DNA of 64,000 nucleotides from a virus. Taxonomy: Duplodnaviria > Caudoviricetes. The notes beneath the pieces are model-generated. The model searched no databases. It was not told the origin of the DNA and saw only the letters and a program-made list of their open reading frames with translations. Shown piece by piece: positions 12,097 to 24,857 of the stretch. Location of the stretch: positions 64,001 through 128,000 of the IMG/VR virus record IMGVR_UViG_3300022917_000008. One strand, 5' to 3'. Position 1 is the stretch's first letter, and the number at the start of each line of letters is the position of its first letter. The position numbers and the translations under genes were made by a program.

Positions 12097-12192
12097 ATGC
12101 AACAACATGCAATAGATATGGCCAATAGAGAGATCAGGGTGAAGAAAAGCTCTGAGGGTATGCTATTTGCTAGACTAGATTACACAAGTTAA
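12097..12192 (+). CDS. attenuator leader peptide 1 (MQQHAIDMANREIRVKKSSEGMLFARLDYTS)
   Basis: Codons 5-17 match the downstream tRNA set; 12149-12160 is complementary to the terminator 5' arm. Confidence 0.8.
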   Translation: MQQHAIDMANREIRVKKSSEGMLFARLDYTS

Positions 12193-12798: not shown

Positions 12799-12840
12799 CA
12801 GATATTTTGTTCTTTGGAATAAACTTCATACATTTGTATT

Positions 12841-13230
12841 GTGACACAAAGAGAACAAACAATAGCAACCAAGTTCCTATATTTGATAGGAGTAACTAAG
12901 GGGCAGATATTTGCCAAGTGTAAGAACTGGCAGTCAGCTAGAACAACCATAAGGAGACATGCTGTGAAGATATATGAGACCTCAGGGAAGCCAAAAGCAT
13001 GTAACTCTTGTGGATATGATAAGCATTATGAAATATGTCACATAAGGGCTGTGTCTGACTTTCCAGATGAAGCCTTAGTTGAAGAGATAAATAGTATAGA
13101 CAACCTGATGGCACTATGTCCAAACTGTCATTGGGAGTTTGACAATTTAGATTGTGGGGTGGATGTAACGGTAACACAAGACTCTCATAAGGTCTTAATT
13201 GACAGTTCGATTCTGTCCCCCGCAACGTAA
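12841..13230 (+). CDS. HNH endonuclease with its own promoter (12806-12836)
   Basis: CNSCG...EICHI...NLMALCPNCH; C-terminus reads through tRNA-Met. Confidence 0.85.
   Translation: MTQREQTIATKFLYLIGVTKGQIFAKCKNWQSARTTIRRHAVKIYETSGKPKACNSCGYDKHYEICHIRAVSDFPDEALVEEINSIDNLMALCPNCHWEFDNLDCGVDVTVTQDSHKVLIDSSILSPAT
13153..13225 (+). tRNA. tRNA-Met(CAT)
   Basis: AGACT-CTCATAA-GGTCT; GACAG-TTCGATT-CTGTC. Confidence 0.82.
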
Positions 13231-18184: not shown

Positions 18185-18912
18185 CATACATACAGAACAA
18201 GGACGGACTTATAGGAGACTTCCTGGGATCAGTACCTGCAATGCAGGAGCTAGGTAGAAGGGACAAGCTAGTGGTACAGATTCATCCAGAGGCATTGAAG
18301 TTAGTACCTCTTATATACAACCCAGATGGGATTGTATTTACTGAGATAGCAACTGGGCAAGTGTCACATACAATCTACTCAGCTACTGCATTCCAGATTG
18401 CAACAGCAAAGAATCTGTACATGTCACAAGCATTCTTTGAGCAGGTGGGATTGGAGATTCCCCTAGTTGCTCCTAAAGCTGATTTAAGGCTCATAGAGGT
18501 CCATACTCCAACTTATGACTACATCATATCACCTTTTGCTAGAAGCCTACCAAGCAGCCAGAAATTGCCTAAGAGTGAATGGAAGCAGTTGGTGGATAGC
18601 ATGCCTAACAAGAAGTTCTGTGTAATTGGTACAACAGTGCATGATGATCCTGAGTTCATAGTAGGACCTAATGTGGAGACTAGATTTGATATGGACTTCA
18701 ACTATGTAGGTAGCCTGCTAAGGAATGCAACTAAGGGACTCATCAGTGTTGTGACAGGCACTTCTCATTTAGCATTTCACCTAGGAGTGAAGAACTGGAT
18801 ACTTAATAATCAGGACTTTGCATGGGGTACTAATCCAGATGGAGTATCAATCAGGGATCATATTCCAGCTCTATTTGGAGAAAAGATTAGAGAATATTTG
18901 GAAAATAGCTAG
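18181..18912 (+). CDS. glycosyltransferase family 9-like protein (GT-B fold)
   Basis: GLIGDFLGSVPAM...ISVVTGTSHLAFHLG; start reassigned to ATG 18181 (ATGA overlap). Confidence 0.75.
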   Translation: MTYIQNKDGLIGDFLGSVPAMQELGRRDKLVVQIHPEALKLVPLIYNPDGIVFTEIATGQVSHTIYSATAFQIATAKNLYMSQAFFEQVGLEIPLVAPKADLRLIEVHTPTYDYIISPFARSLPSSQKLPKSEWKQLVDSMPNKKFCVIGTTVHDDPEFIVGPNVETRFDMDFNYVGSLLRNATKGLISVVTGTSHLAFHLGVKNWILNNQDFAWGTNPDGVSIRDHIPALFGEKIREYLENS

Positions 18913-18928
18913 GACTGCACTATATTTG
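18897..18928 (+). promoter_or_regulatory. Bacteroidetes promoter
   Basis: TTTG-N20-TATATTTG upstream of the tRNA-like RNAs and suppressor. Confidence 0.8.
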
Positions 18929-18936
18929 TATTACAT

Positions 18937-19008
18937 GCGGGGGATACTTAGAGAGCCCTGTTCTCTTATAACCCTTTAATACAGCCATAAAAGCTGTCCC
19001 CCGTTCCA
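18937..19008 (+). ncRNA. tRNA-like RNA A (acceptor stem, T-like arm, CCA)
   Basis: GCGGGGG/CCCCCGT-T-CCA; ACAGC-N7-GCTGT; no canonical anticodon arm. Confidence 0.6.
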
Positions 19009-19009
19009 T

Positions 19010-19059
19010 GGAGAGGTGCTTCTAAGCTTTAGGTTGGTGTGATCCCAACTCTCTCTGCA
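19010..19059 (+). ncRNA. mini tRNA-like RNA B
   Basis: GGAGAG/CTCTCT acceptor stacked on GTTGG-TGTGATC-CCAAC. Confidence 0.5.
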
Positions 19060-19062
19060 AAT

Positions 19063-19115
19063 GGGTAGAAATAGCATAGAGCTGTCAGTTGGGTGTAAGC
19101 CCCACCTACCCACCA
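19063..19115 (+). ncRNA. mini tRNA-like RNA C
   Basis: GGGTAG/CTACCC-ACCA; TGGG-TGTAAGC-CCCA T-like arm. Confidence 0.6.
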
Positions 19116-19116
19116 T

Positions 19117-19189
19117 GCCTTCCTAGCTCAATTGATAGAGCGTCCATCTCTAAAATGGAAAGATGTGGGTTTGAGTCCCACGGATCGCA
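19117..19189 (+). tRNA. amber suppressor tRNA (anticodon CTA)
   Basis: TCCAT-CT-CTA-AA-ATGGA; canonical D-arm; two acceptor-stem mismatches. Confidence 0.85.
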
Positions 19190-19204
19190 CTTAAACTAAA
19201 CACA

Positions 19205-19567
19205 ATGGCTTAGATTACATCAACATCCAGATTGATAACTATAGTAAGGAGAGACCTTAGTCATGGTTATCAGACAGCACAGACAGGTCATGCAATAGCA
19301 GAATGGGCTTATAACAATCCCAGGACCTTTAGAAGGTGGAGAAAAGAAAGTGGGTACTTAATATGTCTTTCAGTAAGAAACCTAGCAGAGCTAGAGGCAT
19401 TCAACAGAAAGTTATATGACAACAAGATAAAGTACACAGCATTTTATGAACCTGACATTGGAGAGTTTACAGCAATAGCAATAACTCCTTCAACTAAGGC
19501 AGACCAGTTAACTAAGCATCTACAGCTAGCCAATGTAAAGGCTGGCACTAAGGACAAACACAAATGA
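19205..19567 (+). CDS. peptidyl-tRNA hydrolase 2-like protein with an in-frame TAG at codon 3
   Basis: IVRRDLS.G.QTAQTGHA...LICLSV...FYEPDIG..TAIA Pth2 motifs; ATG GCT TAG ATT... is in frame with the ORF called from TTG 19232. Confidence 0.8.
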
Positions 19568-19635
19568 AGCAATTATCCTCATATTATCTCCTAAGTTCCC
19601 TGTTGAATAGACAGGCTGAGATAGTATTGAGTTAA
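19564..19635 (+). CDS. attenuator leader peptide 2 (MKQLSSYYLLSSLLNRQAEIVLS)
   Basis: Codons 4-14 are all Leu/Ser/Tyr; ATGA overlap with the Pth2-like stop; contains the antiterminator strand. Confidence 0.82.
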   Translation: MKQLSSYYLLSSLLNRQAEIVLS

Positions 19636-19660
19636 GTCATTCTTCGGAGACCCTTATACT

Positions 19661-19696
19661 AGCCCTCAGCCTAAAAACTGGGGGCTTTTTGTTTTT
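19661..19696 (+). terminator. intrinsic terminator (attenuator 2)
   Basis: AGCCCTCAG/CTGGGGGCT followed by TTTTGTTTTT. Confidence 0.85.
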
Positions 19697-19698
19697 AT

Positions 19699-19774
19699 GG
19701 CAGTGTGGGCAAAATGGTAAAGTCGCTTCACTTAGGATGAAGAGGTTCTGAGAGTTCGAGTCTCTCCACTGTCA
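19699..19774 (+). tRNA. tRNA-Leu(TAG), short variable arm
   Basis: CTTCA-CTTAGGA-TGAAG. Confidence 0.85.
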
Positions 19775-19777
19775 CAT

Positions 19778-19857
19778 ACCTCCATGGTGAAATTGGTAGA
19801 CGCGACAGACTTAAAATCTGTTCCTTCGGGGTGCCAGTTCAAATCTGGCTGGGGGTA
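19778..19857 (+). tRNA. tRNA-Leu(TAA)
   Basis: ACAGA-CTTAAAA-TCTGT; Leu-type D-arm. Confidence 0.92.
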
Positions 19858-19859
19858 CT

Positions 19860-20258
19860 ATGGATAATAAAACCTACTATAGCTCCATAGCGGAGCTAAA
19901 AGTAATGGCTGATCTAACAGCTAAGCACTATCATATATTCAATCAAGTATCTGGTAAGGCACCATTTGACTTGGTTGCATACAGGGATGGAGAGCTAAGG
20001 AGAGTCAGTGTCAAGAGTTGCAACAAAGACCCTAGGAAGGACGGGGGATTTGTGATAGAAGTTGGCAGGGTAAGAGCCAATAAAACAGAGAATAAGATAT
20101 ACAAGTTTGATCAGTCTGAATGTGATCTGCTGGCCATCTACATAGTCAAAGAAGATAGAATAGTCTATGTGGAGTCAACAGTAGCGCATGATAAAAGGCA
20201 GATCATCATACAAGGAAGGTCCCAGTTGACAGAGGTACATGATCTTGAAAATCACTAG
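19860..20258 (+). CDS. PD-(D/E)XK endonuclease (group I intron-associated type)
   Basis: AELKV...PFDLV...RVSVKS...CDLLAIY. Confidence 0.8.
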   Translation: MDNKTYYSSIAELKVMADLTAKHYHIFNQVSGKAPFDLVAYRDGELRRVSVKSCNKDPRKDGGFVIEVGRVRANKTENKIYKFDQSECDLLAIYIVKEDRIVYVESTVAHDKRQIIIQGRSQLTEVHDLENH

Positions 20259-20299
20259 GTCCCTAAAAAGACGTGGGGGTTGAACTCCCCCACCTTCCT
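20214..20299 (+). tRNA. tRNA-Ser(TGA), divergent
   Basis: GGAAGGT/ACCTTCC acceptor; TGAT-CTTGAAA-ATCA; long variable arm. Confidence 0.75.
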
Positions 20300-20307
20300 C
20301 AAACTAA

Positions 20308-20392
20308 GGAGAGTTGGCTGAGAGGCTTAAAGCACCACATTGCTAACGTGGGGGCTGTAATAGGTCCACTAGTTCGAATCTAGTACTCTCCT
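20308..20392 (+). tRNA. tRNA-Ser(GCT)
   Basis: GGAGAGT/ACTCTCC; loop TTGCTAA; long variable arm. Confidence 0.9.
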
Positions 20393-20398
20393 CTTAAT

Positions 20399-20482
20399 GC
20401 CTACCATGGTAGATTGGATACTACCTGTGGACTGTAAATCCACTGCCCTTGGGCTTATTCAGTTCGATTCTGAAGGGAGGCA
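20399..20482 (+). tRNA. tRNA-Tyr(GTA)
   Basis: GTGGA-CTGTAAA-TCCAC; long variable arm. Confidence 0.82.
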
Positions 20483-20504
20483 CATTTTGTTGTATATTTG
20501 TATA

Positions 20505-20765
20505 ATGGAATACAACATCACACCTCAGGCCCTAGTTGATAGGGGATTCAAGTACCATGCACCAGGCATAAGTGGAGCAGACATGTGGCAGGGAATGCCA
20601 TGGTGGATTCATAAGGAGAAGGATATAGGTCTATGCCTTAGAGGGACTACTTCTACAGCAAAGCCTAGAGGACTAAGGTTAGCTGGACATTTCAATACAG
20701 AGGTGAGAACAATAAAGCAGTTAGAAGTTTTGATGGAAATATTTGGTTTGAATCCAAATAGTTAG
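20505..20765 (+). CDS. hypothetical protein (probably leaderless)
   Basis: ATG 20505 just after TATATTTG; the N-terminus in the ORF track overlaps tRNA-Tyr. Confidence 0.65.
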   Translation: MEYNITPQALVDRGFKYHAPGISGADMWQGMPWWIHKEKDIGLCLRGTTSTAKPRGLRLAGHFNTEVRTIKQLEVLMEIFGLNPNS

Positions 20766-20773
20766 TATATTTG
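20742..20773 (+). promoter_or_regulatory. Bacteroidetes promoter of tRNA operon 3
   Basis: TTTG-N20-TATATTTG; same spacing to the leader ATG as in operon 1. Confidence 0.8.
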
Positions 20774-20776
20774 ATT

Positions 20777-20848
20777 ATGAAACAGACTTGGCAACATACC
20801 TTTACGACACAAACTCCACTAAAAGGAGAAGGGTATCTGTTGTCATAA
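20777..20848 (+). CDS. attenuator leader peptide 3 (MKQTWQHTFTTQTPLKGEGYLLS)
   Basis: Codons 3-14 are all Gln/Thr/Trp/His/Phe/Pro; contains the antiterminator strand. Confidence 0.85.
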   Translation: MKQTWQHTFTTQTPLKGEGYLLS

Positions 20849-20883
20849 CATTCCAAGAAAGATTGTAATAATGAAACACTGAT

Positions 20884-20912
20884 ACCCTCCATTCCTGGAG
20901 GGTTTTTTATTT
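20884..20912 (+). terminator. intrinsic terminator (attenuator 3)
   Basis: ACCCTCCA-TTCC-TGGAGGGT followed by TTTTTATTTT. Confidence 0.88.
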
Positions 20913-20984
20913 TGGGTGGTTGACCAATGGTAGGTCCCTACATTTGGGATGTAGAATTTGCAGGTTCGAGTCCTGTTCACCCAA
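20913..20984 (+). tRNA. tRNA-Pro(TGG)
   Basis: CTACA-TTTGGGA-TGTAG. Confidence 0.85.
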
Positions 20985-20988
20985 CTAT

Positions 20989-21061
20989 GGTGCACAAGCT
21001 AATCTGGTGAAAGCACTAGACTGAAAATCTAGGGAGCTTGGATCAAAACCAAGGTGTACCG
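20989..21061 (+). tRNA. tRNA-Phe(GAA)
   Basis: CTAGA-CTGAAAA-TCTAG. Confidence 0.85.
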
Positions 21062-21062
21062 C

Positions 21063-21494
21063 ATGAAACAATCAAATAGAAAGGATGCTAGAAGGGTCAT
21101 AGACTGTGAAAACTGTGGTAACCCAACAAAGAATGATAGATTCTGTAGTCTATCTTGCTCAGCAGAACATGTATCAAAGGAGCAGTATAGAAAGTTCTTG
21201 AGCAGCCCTGAGGACTTCCAGGGTGAGGAGTACTCTCCTAAGTCCTTTAAGAAGTTTATACTGAAGGAACAGGATTGCAAGTGTAGCATCTGTAGTATAG
21301 ACAATATATGGAATGGTAAGGAACTGGTGTTTGTACTAGATCACATAGATGGAAATCCAGGCAACAATACTAGGGACAACCTTAGGCTAGTATGTCCCAA
21401 TTGTGATAGCCAGTTGGACACATTTAAAAGTGGAAATAAGGGAAGTGGTAGGTACTACAGAACACAAAGAAGATTAGAGGGCAAATCCTCATAA
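21063..21494 (+). CDS. HNH endonuclease
   Basis: CSIC...LDHIDGNPGNNTRDNLRLVCPNCDSQ; N-terminal Zn finger. Confidence 0.9.
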   Translation: MKQSNRKDARRVIDCENCGNPTKNDRFCSLSCSAEHVSKEQYRKFLSSPEDFQGEEYSPKSFKKFILKEQDCKCSICSIDNIWNGKELVFVLDHIDGNPGNNTRDNLRLVCPNCDSQLDTFKSGNKGSGRYYRTQRRLEGKSS

Positions 21495-21567
21495 GGCCGG
21501 TTAGTTTATATGACTAAAATACGTCTCTTGTAAAGATGAGTACTGAGTTTGATGCTCAGACTGGCCT
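21495..21567 (+). tRNA. tRNA-Thr(TGT)
   Basis: CGTCT-CTTGTAA-AGATG. Confidence 0.8.
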
Positions 21568-21573
21568 CTTAAT

Positions 21574-21644
21574 AGCCCTTTAGCACATTGGTAGTGCGTG
21601 GAGCTTTGGACTCCATGAAGTTAGTTCGATCCTAGCAGGGGCTT
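21574..21644 (+). tRNA. tRNA-Gln(TTG)
   Basis: TGGAG-CTTTGGA-CTCCA. Confidence 0.87.
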
Positions 21645-21651
21645 CTTATAT

Positions 21652-21724
21652 GGTGCTTGTAGCATAAAGGTAATGCACTGCTCTGTGAAAGCAGTGAAGA
21701 GGGATCAATACCCTCCTTGTACCC
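21652..21724 (+). tRNA. tRNA-His(GTG)
   Basis: CTGCT-CTGTGAA-AGCAG; G-1 present. Confidence 0.8.
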
Positions 21725-21729
21725 CAAAC

Positions 21730-21798
21730 ACGTGCTAGGCTATGGTAGCCACCCAGTCTCCAAAACTGAAGGAAGTAGTTCGATTCTACTAGTGCGTG
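21730..21798 (+). tRNA. tRNA-Trp(CCA)
   Basis: CAGT-CTCCAAA-ACTG; AGTAG-TTCGATT-CTACT. Confidence 0.8.
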
Positions 21799-21849
21799 CA
21801 ATAGAATAGTTTGATAAGCAAACCTATAAAGTTTGCATGTCAAACTATT

Positions 21850-21881
21850 TTTGTTTATATGAACTAAGACCCATATATTTG
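21850..21881 (+). promoter_or_regulatory. Bacteroidetes promoter
   Basis: TTTG-N20-TATATTTG. Confidence 0.7.
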
Positions 21882-21898
21882 TATTGAAGACCAACAAT

Positions 21899-22246
21899 AT
21901 GAGTGTAGACTTAATCAAGGACAAGATAACAGTAAGTGATAAGACTGAGGCACTCAGGCTGCACCTACTTATTAAGTCCTTCCAGACAGGTCTAAACCTC
22001 TCAGAGTCAGACATTAACAGTCTGGTTGAGCTTAGCATAGTAGGGTATAACCCAGAGTTCTTCAAGGCTTGTGTAGACAAGGGCTATTACAAGAGTGAGC
22101 AGACTGTAAGGAATGCCATAGCCAAGATGACTAACATGGGGATACTGTACTACAGGAAGAGAGGGGAAAGGAAGATCAATGAGGACTTCCTACCTAAAAC
22201 AAGTTCAGACAAGGTAATGTTTCAATACTTAGTGGGTAACATATGA
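21899..22246 (+). CDS. putative winged-HTH DNA-binding protein
   Basis: SEQTVRNAIAKMTNMGIL HTH-like segment. Confidence 0.55.
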   Translation: MSVDLIKDKITVSDKTEALRLHLLIKSFQTGLNLSESDINSLVELSIVGYNPEFFKACVDKGYYKSEQTVRNAIAKMTNMGILYYRKRGERKINEDFLPKTSSDKVMFQYLVGNI

Positions 22247-22581
22247 TAGTAAGGGCATCTGAAATATATACTGTAACAGCACTAAGGCATGGATTGGACC
22301 AAGAACTTGTTTCCTCAGTTGGTGAGACAGTGTTCAAGTCCTTGATGGAAAAGATGGTAGTACCTCATGACCTAGCTTATGAGTTGGATCATGTGGGGAC
22401 ATTTGCTATTAGACACAAGAAGTTCTTGGGTAAGCATGCAACCCTTTTGAGTAATAACCCTGACCATCCCTTTGTGTCAACATGGAGGCATGTTATAGAC
22501 ATGGTACAGGACTTCAGAAACACTAAGGCACAATTTCAATCTAGGAGGGCAGAATATGACAGAGCCAAAAAACAAGGCTAA
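22243..22581 (+). CDS. HU/IHF-like protein (putative)
   Basis: ELDHVGTFAIR resembles the HU beta-arm motif. Confidence 0.45.
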   Translation: MIVRASEIYTVTALRHGLDQELVSSVGETVFKSLMEKMVVPHDLAYELDHVGTFAIRHKKFLGKHATLLSNNPDHPFVSTWRHVIDMVQDFRNTKAQFQSRRAEYDRAKKQG

Positions 22582-22873
22582 GATCAGCCTTAAGAATATA
22601 GGTAGGTTCTTGCAGGGATACTCCAGGATGTTCTCAGAGACCTTTGGCTTGCTTGAAAAGCACAAACAGGAGCAAGTTATATGGAGATCAGAACAGGCCA
22701 AGGAATGCCTTAAAAATGGCTCCTGCTTGTATTGTGGATGTGACACCCCAGCTAAATTTTATGGAGATGAAGCATGTGAGGACCCTCAAAGGCAATGTTA
22801 CCCTAGTATGATGGATGTACCAACTTGGGAACAGTATAAGGCAGAACATCAAATAACCATTAAAGTAGACTAA
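22556..22873 (+). CDS. Cys-rich hypothetical protein
   Basis: CLKNGSCLYCGC...C...CYP. Confidence 0.7.
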   Translation: MTEPKNKAKISLKNIGRFLQGYSRMFSETFGLLEKHKQEQVIWRSEQAKECLKNGSCLYCGCDTPAKFYGDEACEDPQRQCYPSMMDVPTWEQYKAEHQITIKVD

Positions 22874-23181
22874 TGGGACAAGAAGTAACAATAAGCCCTA
22901 GTAGGATGGACTTGGGCAAGATAGATAACAAACCCAGAAAGTTCTGGTTTGAAGTCAGGAATAACCACCATGCAACTCTTGACTTAGCAGCTTGGGCCTC
23001 TTGTGGCTGTACTACACCAATAGTAGTCCCTAGTAGGGTTGAACCTGGGCAGACAGCACAACTGAGGGTAGAATTTGATCCCACTGGTAAAAGTGGCCTC
23101 CAGGAGAAGGGAGTGGGAGTAACTTATGTTATAGAGGGCCATCAGAAGAACACAGGAGCAACCTTTGTTGCAAACATCTAA
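22873..23181 (+). CDS. DUF1573-like Ig-fold protein
   Basis: ASCGCTTP...VEPGQTAQLRVEFD. Confidence 0.75.
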   Translation: MGQEVTISPSRMDLGKIDNKPRKFWFEVRNNHHATLDLAAWASCGCTTPIVVPSRVEPGQTAQLRVEFDPTGKSGLQEKGVGVTYVIEGHQKNTGATFVANI

Positions 23182-23192
23182 AACAAAATACT

Positions 23193-23492
23193 ATGAGTTT
23201 CCACAATCACACACATGAAGAGGGTCATCTATGTGATGACTGCAAGGCAGAATTGAAAGAGGACATTCACCTTATGATCACTATCCTACACTCTCCAGCA
23301 GGGGAATCTACTAGGGACTTGGCTGATAGCCTACTATACAGCTTCCTTATGGAGCTATATGGGGTATGTGACTGTGAGGACCCTGATGAGGATGATGATG
23401 AACAGTCAGATAATGATAGCCCTGTACAAGGTCCTATAATTGGGAACTTGAGGGAGTTCCTCACAGCTATGGGTACACAGCACCACACCTAA
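23193..23492 (+). CDS. acidic His/Cys-rich hypothetical protein
   Basis: 99-aa ORF. Confidence 0.6.
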   Translation: MSFHNHTHEEGHLCDDCKAELKEDIHLMITILHSPAGESTRDLADSLLYSFLMELYGVCDCEDPDEDDDEQSDNDSPVQGPIIGNLREFLTAMGTQHHT

Positions 23493-23522
23493 TTATCATG
23501 TTGGGGGCCAGTCTAGTCAGGA

Positions 23523-23984
23523 ATGGAAAAGTATTGTCCTAAATGCAAGCAGAAGAAAGACACATCCTTCTTCAGACCTAACAAATCTAGGAAGGATGGT
23601 CTTCAACCTTGCTGCATAGATTGTGATAAGGAATATCAAAGGCAATGGTACCAGAGCAACAAGGAAAAGGTAAAAGCTAAGTCCTTAGTAAGCAATAAGG
23701 TAAATAGAGAAAGAGTACAAGAGATTCTACTAAGGGAACTAGAAGGTAAGAAATGTGAACACTGTGGGGAAGGTGATATACTAGTACTAGAGTTTGACCA
23801 CCTAAGAGACAAGCAGTTCACCATAGGCAATACACAGTGGGAGAGCGAAGACAAAATAATAGAGGAGGTAGGAAAGTGCCAAGTACTATGTGCCAACTGC
23901 CATAGAAGGAAAACTCATGAAGATATGAACACATACAAATGGAGGTATAGCCAAGGGGTAAGGCAGGAGTCTGCAAAACTCTGA
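23523..23984 (+). CDS. HNH endonuclease
   Basis: CPKC...CIDC; CEHCG...LEFDHL...CQVLCANCH; stop lies inside tRNA-Cys. Confidence 0.88.
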   Translation: MEKYCPKCKQKKDTSFFRPNKSRKDGLQPCCIDCDKEYQRQWYQSNKEKVKAKSLVSNKVNRERVQEILLRELEGKKCEHCGEGDILVLEFDHLRDKQFTIGNTQWESEDKIIEEVGKCQVLCANCHRRKTHEDMNTYKWRYSQGVRQESAKL

Positions 23985-24014
23985 GCGAAGGTTCAATTCC
24001 TTCTACCTCTTCCA
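23941..24014 (+). tRNA. tRNA-Cys(GCA)
   Basis: GGAGT-CTGCAAA-ACTCT; encoded CCA. Confidence 0.88.
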
Positions 24015-24047
24015 GAAATCCAACAAACCTTAAATAAACCAACACTA

Positions 24048-24120
24048 GCATCAGTAGTATAAAGGCTGATTATACTGCACTTCCAATGCAGGGATGAGGT
24101 TTCGATTACCTCCTGGTGCT
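24048..24120 (+). tRNA. tRNA-Gly(TCC)
   Basis: CTGCA-CTTCCAA-TGCAG. Confidence 0.85.
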
Positions 24121-24137
24121 CAAAAAGAAACCAACTA

Positions 24138-24857
24138 ATGAAGTTTATTGAAAGTACACACAAGTACATTGACGAGGAAGAGAAAGAATATGCCCCAGTT
24201 ACATCTCTACTGAAGAGTTTTCAGGAGAAGGTGGATTGGGATGCAGTAGCAACCAAGAAAGCTAAGAAGGATGGCACAACTAAGGAGGCCTTACTTGCTC
24301 AATGGGCAGACAAGAGAGATAGGGCAGCAGAGAGGGGTACAGCTTACCATAAGCAGAAGGAAGAGGAGTTACTAGGCTATCCCAATGTTGTTGGATACCA
24401 TACAGATCATAGTGGGATTAAGTCTGATGCTGACATGAAGTTAGAGGAAGGCCTGATCTATGTGGAGAAGATGATATGGTCCAAGAAGTATAAGGTGTGT
24501 GGTACAGCAGACTTGGTTGAAGTAGTCAATGGAAAGATCAATATTAAAGACTACAAGACAAATGAAAAGTTGGATTTCGAGTCATGGAAACACCCAAGAA
24601 ATGGATCAAAAAGGCTCCTCTATCCAGTTCAACACCTGGATGACTGCAATTTCAACCTATACCAGCTTCAGGTTAACTGCTATATGTATATGCTACTCCA
24701 GCACAATAGGCACCTTAAGATGGGAGAGATGGAAATCCTCCACGTAGTGTTTGATGAGAACAAGCAGCACAAGGAAACAAGAGTATACCCAGCTATGAAC
24801 TTCCAGAGAGATGTGAAGAACATGTTGGAACAACATCTAAAAACCAGGCATGCTTAG
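24138..24857 (+). CDS. PD-(D/E)XK (RecB/Cas4-like) nuclease
   Basis: GTAYH...E...CGTADL...IKDYKT...YQLQVNCY. Confidence 0.85.
   Translation: MKFIESTHKYIDEEEKEYAPVTSLLKSFQEKVDWDAVATKKAKKDGTTKEALLAQWADKRDRAAERGTAYHKQKEEELLGYPNVVGYHTDHSGIKSDADMKLEEGLIYVEKMIWSKKYKVCGTADLVEVVNGKINIKDYKTNEKLDFESWKHPRNGSKRLLYPVQHLDDCNFNLYQLQVNCYMYMLLQHNRHLKMGEMEILHVVFDENKQHKETRVYPAMNFQRDVKNMLEQHLKTRHA

Follow-up and report, generated by a model that had tools for sequence, protein, structure and literature searches.

Leader-peptide attenuation is a textbook mechanism whose described cases are, to our knowledge, limited to operons for amino-acid biosynthesis and to one synthetase operon. Enterobacterial leaders are either multivalent, as those of thr (Thr, Ile) and ilvGMEDA (Ile, Val, Leu), or single, as trpL, hisL, pheL and leuL, and the attenuator of E. 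coli pheST, with its pheM leader, controls an aminoacyl-tRNA synthetase and senses one amino acid. The tRNA arrays of large phages are usually viewed either as constitutive supplements to codon usage or as decoys that counter tRNA-cutting defences.

Here we analyzed an element within a 64,000-nucleotide stretch of DNA, the window, which is the middle part of the genome of an uncultured crAss-like phage (155,657 bp in a single contig, 41.9% GC). The assignment is one that terminase, portal and capsid genes identify from their sequences: TerL matches phrog_6681 and the capsids of relatives match Pfam Crass_capsid, with no more than 30% identity between this TerL and those of named Crassvirales (tblastn). 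The window holds 25 tRNA genes, amber suppressor included, which cover 20 of 20 amino acids (ARAGORN and Rfam). We hold with good confidence that the element is a ribosome-mediated (leader-peptide) transcription attenuator of a phage tRNA operon, exerting negative feedback on tRNA supply, with the caveat that there are no experimental data and that translation of the leader is unproven.

Two features of the genome at large are recorded here. CpG depletion is extreme throughout: the NCG codons ACG, CCG, TCG and GCG each make up 0.4-1.2% of their own family, each CGN codon accounts for at most 1.6% of Arg codons, and in the stretch 19000-24200 the tRNA genes hold most of the leftover CpGs. About 7.7-8.1 kb before the window (genome 55911-56315, minus strand), ARAGORN places a tmRNA-like gene of 405 nt with a short tag peptide, possibly a false call.

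The leader and the tRNA genes behind it

The original prediction had read positions 20742-20912 as an attenuator that senses Thr, Gln, Trp, His, Phe and Pro. Our analysis supports this reading, with the full anatomy in the right register: a short ORF, regulatory codons, an antiterminator that overlaps the terminator, and a stop codon adjoining the 5′ arm of the antiterminator. All of its coordinates agree with the sequence, base for base. The strongest support comes from the match between the leader and the downstream tRNAs, and from the covariation of the two in related phages. Downstream of a gene at 20505-20765, the unit is laid out as follows (tRNA genes by ARAGORN and Rfam).

20742-20773, plus strand: promoter-like motif of the Bacteroidota type, with TTTG at 20742-20745, a 20-nt spacer and TATATTTG at 20766-20773
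20777-20848, plus strand: leader ORF of 23 codons plus TAA, with its ATG at 20777-20779 and its stop at 20846-20848
20783-20818, plus strand: regulatory codons 3-14, for Gln Thr Trp Gln His Thr Phe Thr Thr Gln Thr Pro
20913-20985, plus strand: tRNA-Pro(UGG)
20989-21062, plus strand: tRNA-Phe(GAA)
21063-21494, plus strand: HNH endonuclease ORF (family search), inserted between tRNA-Phe and tRNA-Thr
21495-21568, plus strand: tRNA-Thr(UGU)
21574-21645, plus strand: tRNA-Gln(UUG)
21653-21726, plus strand: tRNA-His(GUG)
21730-21799, plus strand: tRNA-Trp(CCA)
21804-21856, plus strand: operon-closing hairpin and U-run (-22.2 kcal/mol, z -6.3)

The regulatory codons read CAG ACT TGG CAA CAT ACC TTT ACG ACA CAA ACT CCA, as had been stated. 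All 12 residues fall within the set of amino acids served by the downstream tRNAs and 6/6 members of that set are present, so that the amino acids of the leader, Gln, Thr, Trp, His, Phe and Pro, are exactly the six downstream tRNA identities, a match that the original prediction did not mention. These amino acids account for 22.8% of residues in this genome, and from that usage the probability of finding all of 12 given residues within the set is 2e-8. Codons 3-14 are the longest run of the set in six frames across 155.7 kb; the second-longest (10 residues, genome 35350, minus strand) belongs to the N-terminal end of a long ORF of the ordinary kind and was put down to chance. The downstream tRNAs can read every one of the 12 codons, five by Watson-Crick pairing, four by wobble and three by U34 in a four-codon box. 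Recoding of TAG or TGA as a general code was also considered and discarded, as the long ORFs give no indication of it, and the leader is unaffected.

The four Thr codons and both Gln codons do occur together in codons 3-14, and the retention of ACG had been taken as a sign of selection on codon identity. The CpG avoidance behind this argument is genuine, with an observed/expected ratio of 0.073 genome-wide (498 CpG per 155.7 kb), and ACG makes up only 1.2% of the Thr codons of the genome. Under genome codon usage, the probability of at least one ACG among five Thr codons is 0.058 and that of all four Thr codons is 0.017, and the relatives make no consistent use of all four. The presence of ACG despite CpG avoidance therefore stands, while selection on codon identity receives only weak support (P about 0.06).

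No Shine-Dalgarno sequence precedes the leader ATG at 20777, and the promoter-like box TATATTTG ends 3 nt before it, so that either leaderless or near-leaderless initiation, or entry from the 20505-20765 transcript, would be needed. The bipartite pattern TTTG-N17-21-TAnnTTTG occurs eight times on the plus strand of the genome against 1.6 expected, with 6/8 copies intergenic in the tRNA region, and a -7-like box lying 3-7 nt before the ATG is kept in 5/7 related units. On these motifs, a transcription start at 20742-20773 is inferred.

Behind the leader, the U-tract (to 20912) abuts tRNA-Pro (from 20913) and leaves no room for a promoter between them. We found no bipartite promoter-like motif on the plus strand of 20900-21845, where the single TAnnTTTG lies inside tRNA-Pro, and the next promoter-like motif after tRNA-Trp is at 21850-21881. 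Together, the abutting U-tract and the lack of a promoter motif in the cluster mean that the tRNAs would be made only by read-through of the terminator. The HNH gene that interrupts the six-tRNA cluster was counted against the attenuator reading; it is missing from the contiguous clusters of two related phages, L007 and L009.

Several ORFs are interleaved with the tRNA genes (12840-13150, 19860-20258, 21063-21494 and 23523-23984) and differ between related phages, as if mobile nucleases used the tRNA array as a landing site. Family searches assign 19860-20258 to the PD-(D/E)XK endonucleases and 21063-21494 to the HNH endonucleases; the other two are HNH-like by eye only.

Alternative helices and the closest described systems

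The RNA between the promoter-like motif and tRNA-Pro can be divided into four regions, which combine into three helices.

20789-20803, plus strand: region 1, inside the regulatory codons; in the absence of a ribosome, pairs with region 2 as an anti-antiterminator
20829-20846, plus strand: region 2, extending to the stop codon; serves region 1 as 3′ partner or, alternatively, forms the antiterminator 5′ arm
20871-20888, plus strand: region 3, the 3′ arm of the antiterminator, with 20884-20888 common to the 5′ arm of the terminator
20884-20912, plus strand: intrinsic terminator, an 8-bp stem (20884-20891 with 20896-20903), a 4-nt loop and a U-tract at 20904-20912
20789-20803 with 20829-20845, plus strand: helix 1:2 (-18.2 kcal/mol, z -3.9 against dinucleotide shuffles)
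20830-20846 with 20871-20888, plus strand: helix 2:3, the antiterminator (-17.8 kcal/mol, z -3.1 against dinucleotide shuffles)
20884-20891 with 20896-20903, plus strand: helix 3:4, the terminator (-13.4 kcal/mol, z -3.3 against dinucleotide shuffles)

The antiterminator that had been proposed, AGGGTATC (20830-20837) paired with GATACCCT (20881-20888) and extended by TGTT (20838-20841) with AACA (20875-20878) and by TCAT (20843-20846) with ATGA (20871-20874), is present in the sequence and is recovered in all three parts by ViennaRNA when region 1 is masked. The terminator, ACCCTCCA (20884-20891) with TGGAGGGT (20896-20903) followed by a T-tract to 20912, was likewise found, and the two structures are mutually exclusive, as claimed, because both need 20884-20888. 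A comparison of the folding energies of the two conformers had been suggested as a check; the values listed above are -17.8 kcal/mol for the antiterminator and -13.4 kcal/mol for the terminator. Helix 1:2 was absent from the original prediction and completes a four-region layout of the trp type.

With region 2 shuffled, the 2:3 duplex scored -14.9 against -6.9 +/- 2.4 in the shuffles (p = 0.0035), and the 1:2 duplex gave p = 0.001; combined over seven units, the shuffle tests gave 1e-4 for 2:3 and 3e-8 for 1:2. The ribosome-free fold contains helix 1:2 and the terminator together (-32.6 kcal/mol, z -2.7). The ribosome was modelled as a mask extending 15 nt beyond the first base of the A-site codon. 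With the A site at codons 4-12, the antiterminator was the minimum-energy fold even with region 4 made (-25.4 to -20.0 kcal/mol), and 0/8 terminator pairs were formed; codon 14 gave a mixed outcome. A ribosome at the stop codon left the terminator without a competitor and with 8/8 pairs, and the terminator was also complete without any ribosome.

The phage unit resembles the enterobacterial leaders in having a short ORF with regulatory codons, four regions that form 1:2, 2:3 and 3:4 helices, a stop codon that lets the terminating ribosome mask region 2, a terminator with a U-tract, and an off state without translation. The features expected of such an element are present, namely a short ORF with clustered regulatory codons ahead of the regulated genes, an intrinsic terminator between the leader and those genes, a terminator-exclusive antiterminator whose 5′ arm is masked by a stop-codon ribosome, and a 1:2 helix that blocks the antiterminator in the untranslated leader. 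Classical amino-acid operon leaders govern genes for the synthesis or charging of the amino acid that they sense, and here the phage unit departs from them, with six tRNA genes and the HNH ORF downstream. In contrast to the enterobacterial leaders, the phage unit would regulate tRNA genes instead of biosynthetic enzymes, would sense six amino acids that are the downstream tRNA identities, sits in a phage of Bacteroidota, and lacks a 5′ UTR and a Shine-Dalgarno sequence, since the promoter-like box ends 3 nt before the AUG. It also shows no similarity to those leaders in sequence or by covariance model. None of the Rfam families Thr_leader, His_leader, Trp_leader, Leu_leader and Phe_leader reaches its gathering score; the best match is Phe_leader, with 24.5 bits against a cut-off of 55, and covers the terminator part only, and the window-wide Rfam scan reported tRNAs alone. 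The modelled mechanism thus agrees with classical leader-peptide attenuation in every structural feature that could be tested, and the element belongs to no curated leader family, none of which is defined so as to cover tRNA genes as cargo.

Two other systems come close. The pheST operon, with its pheM leader, also uses leader-peptide attenuation for a component of the translation machinery, but its target is a protein-coding synthetase operon, whereas the output of the phage unit would be the tRNAs themselves, in a direct feedback loop. T-box riboswitches (RF00230) likewise sense the state of a tRNA and choose between terminator and antiterminator upstream of translation-related genes; however, a T-box binds one uncharged tRNA directly and without a ribosome, whereas the phage element has an ORF with six amino-acid types. 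No match to RF00230, with its specifier loop and T-box sequence, was found in the window by Rfam.

Related units and competing readings

Two sister units lie in the window. The leader starting at 12097 has a 13-residue core of only Ala, Ile, Asp, Met, Asn, Arg, Glu, Val and Lys, and precedes tRNAs for exactly these nine amino acids; the core of the leader that begins at 19564 consists of 11 residues, all Leu, Ser or Tyr, and this leader precedes Leu, Leu, Ser and Tyr tRNAs. Both units have a terminator and alternative helices, and we propose that they act alike for nine and three other amino acids.

Outside the three attenuator units, tRNA-Cys and tRNA-Gly (23941-24121) follow directly behind an ORF, without leader or terminator; in the relatives, a Cys or Gly tRNA is sometimes found in a gated cluster, and the leader then has that codon. 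A PTH2 peptidyl-tRNA hydrolase gene (19205-19567; Pfam PF01981, E = 4.5e-10) follows the amber suppressor tRNA(CUA) (19117-19190) at a distance of 15 nt; its third codon is TAG, so that the hydrolase seems to be made only when the suppressor works. The TGA stop of this gene overlaps the ATG of the Leu/Ser/Tyr leader, and the gene adjoins elements relying on stalled ribosomes. About 190 nt without an ORF (18929-19116) separate the suppressor tRNA from a promoter-like motif at 18897-18928; they contain GC-rich complementary segments by eye and have no Rfam match in a window-wide scan.

TerL homologues in metagenome assemblies led to twelve loci, six of which (L003, L004, L006, L007, L009 and L010, with TerL 55-70% identical to that of the window) have syntenic arrays in which the three kinds of unit recur. 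A leader ORF of 23-37 codons is present in 7/7 related units, each with a terminator, and the composition of the leaders is kept while the order of their residues is not. The helix sequences also differ between phages: the closest relative, L003, has the pair AGGCCUG/CAGGCCU where the window has AGGGUAUC/GAUACCCU, with conserved flanks.

Five of the relatives have an intact cluster, and in these the leader varies in step with the tRNA set. The cluster of L004 includes a Cys tRNA, and no other unit has a Cys codon in its leader core; L009 is without the Phe tRNA, and its leader alone has no Phe codon; and in L010 an extra Arg(GCG) tRNA is accompanied by a CGT codon in the leader. The first-cluster units of 4/4 phages agree in Gly, Asp and Arg between leader and tRNAs. 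Over 17 leader/cluster pairs, 182/221 leader residues at positions 3-15 fall in the tRNA set of their own cluster (0.82) against 0.07 in the sets of other clusters of the same phage, and 85/90 tRNA identities are represented in their own leader. The 2x2 Fisher test gives p = 3e-45, which serves as an index only and is not a true probability, because the sequences are related. The downstream tRNAs can read 170 of the 182 in-set codons. The mismatches are Arg codons in the leaders of L007 and L009, for which there is no matching tRNA, the leader of L006, which stands ahead of a decayed cluster (HNH gene and Trp only), and twelve Ser codons in the Leu/Ser/Tyr leaders, from the box that the phage Ser tRNA cannot read.

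In 7/7 Pro-type units, a stalled ribosome left the 5′ arm of the terminator partly or fully sequestered before region 4 was made, and a stop-codon ribosome freed this arm fully in 4/7 units and largely in 3/7 (fold model). The equilibrium fold of the complete RNA retains the terminator at most or all modelled stall positions in L003, L006 and L010, so that read-through there would rest on co-transcriptional kinetics. The fixed-zone shuffle test was not significant for L004, L006 and L007, because region 2 lies elsewhere in their longer leaders and not in the last nine codons.

Other searches returned no further units. Within 10 kb upstream of TerL, the loci L002, L005, L008, L011 and L012 are devoid of tRNAs, and L015 was rejected, because its only tRNAs, for Trp, Met and Cys, come directly after a gene and have no leader. 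A DNA pattern search with the first 20-23 leader bases gave 0 matches in viral contigs, and its matches in metagenome contigs (L013 and L014) were discarded as unrelated ORFs without tRNAs. Comparison of the tRNA region with GenBank phages (blastn) gave only scattered tRNA and HNH matches, and a search for related loci by TerL alone recovered nothing beyond a fragment of this phage itself. In the cultured model Bacteroides phage crAss001, 23 tRNA genes form an array at the corresponding place, upstream of TerL, but the gaps that were read by eye contain no leader-terminator units; this counts against the attenuator reading, and the phage is thus not a ready test system. Ahead of its first tRNA (1640-1690 of that locus) stand a TAnnTTTG-like box and a mini-ORF of four codons (Met Ile Arg Arg, stop), with no terminator, a layout unlike that of the window units.

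The same switch could also report amino-acid starvation through uncharged tRNA, with the tRNA output as a by-product or as part of a general stress response. This fits a structure that is indistinguishable from classical attenuators, which answer to charged tRNA, and the sister-unit Ser codons that the phage Ser tRNA cannot read also fit sensing at the level of the amino acid. However, extra tRNA cannot relieve an amino-acid shortage, and the match extends down to single tRNAs, with both Lys codons where there are both Lys tRNAs, and ATA where there is a third CAU tRNA. Since CGT occurs only alongside the Arg(GCG) tRNA, and codons are gained and lost in the leaders together with tRNA genes, we consider starvation sensing unlikely and infer that a shortage of tRNA, rather than of amino acids, is likely what is sensed. 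If the ORF were incidental, an untranslated RNA element could stand in its place, whether a 5′ leader involved in tRNA processing or a direct tRNA binder of the T-box kind, as the ATG without a Shine-Dalgarno sequence, very near the promoter-like box, might suggest. This is very doubtful, because neither the T-box nor any other Rfam family reaches threshold, the binding of six different tRNAs by one RNA is implausible, and conservation between phages applies to the reading frame, to the composition in amino acids and to where the stop codon lies, but does not extend to the nucleotide sequence.

An ordinary constitutive terminator of the upstream gene (20505-20765), beside a short ORF arisen by chance, is a further possibility, and this gene has no other terminator; the hairpin was picked up by a simple scan that reports 12 sites per 14 kb against 8.3 expected. 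Yet a terminator of that kind, set against tRNA-Pro and with no promoter following it, would keep six intact tRNA genes silent, the alternative helices exceed those of shuffles, and a composition match improbable by chance (2e-8) recurs in two sister units and six other phages, with covariation, which makes the explanation hardly tenable. Equally hard to sustain is the idea that a protein product matters, whether a functional 23-residue small protein or the product of a 66-codon ORF on the minus strand (20692-20892). Both ORFs exist, but the latter has no Pfam match, and in the leaders the order of residues varies between phages with only the composition conserved, which is the signature of a sensor and not of a folded peptide. 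The attenuator remains our preferred reading.

Proposed mechanism and biological meaning

Under the attenuator model, host RNA polymerase would start at the promoter-like motif 20742-20773, as inferred from the motif, and a ribosome would load on the AUG at, or within a few bases of, the 5′ end of the RNA, which is also an inference. The ribosome would then decode codons 3-14, whose content of only Gln, Thr, Trp, His, Phe and Pro codons is evident. Slow decoding would hold it on region 1, and in silico this frees region 2 (20830-20846) to pair with region 3 (20871-20888) and to occupy 5/8 bases of the 5′ arm of the terminator. With helix 2:3 formed, the polymerase would be expected to continue into tRNA-Pro, Phe, Thr, Gln, His and Trp, read-through itself being inferred. 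If decoding is fast, the ribosome would reach the UAA at 20846-20848 and cover region 2, the terminator (20884-20903) could form, and transcription would end one base before tRNA-Pro. Without translation, region 1 would pair with region 2 and the terminator would form, so that the default state would be off. New tRNAs would relieve the stall and the operon would be shut again. Because the leader is written in exactly the amino acids of these tRNAs and a switchable stop stands in front of them, the six-tRNA set is probably made only during slow reading of the leader codons.

Extended to the sister units, this would amount to a modular tRNA homeostat, in which eighteen amino acids are distributed over three attenuator-gated tRNA operons, each turned on only when its own codons decode slowly; we give this wider proposal an even chance of being right. 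A full-text literature search found no report of leader-peptide control of tRNA genes, and most subscription journals were outside its coverage, so the missing precedent is absence of evidence only. If the proposal is true, it would represent the first example of ribosome-mediated attenuation by which tRNA genes regulate themselves.

The arrangement also supplies a sequence rule, by which the leader predicts which tRNAs share one transcription unit, and a compact natural sensor of decoding speed at chosen codons, and it implies that leaderless or near-leaderless translation is coupled to transcription in Bacteroidota hosts. It would also explain how tRNA arrays are regulated in large phages. 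With a homeostat of this kind, the phage could detect and repair the loss of specific host tRNAs, as through cleavage by the anticodon nucleases of host defence systems or through host shut-off, and if such loss is indeed detected, the homeostat would be a counter-defence sensor.
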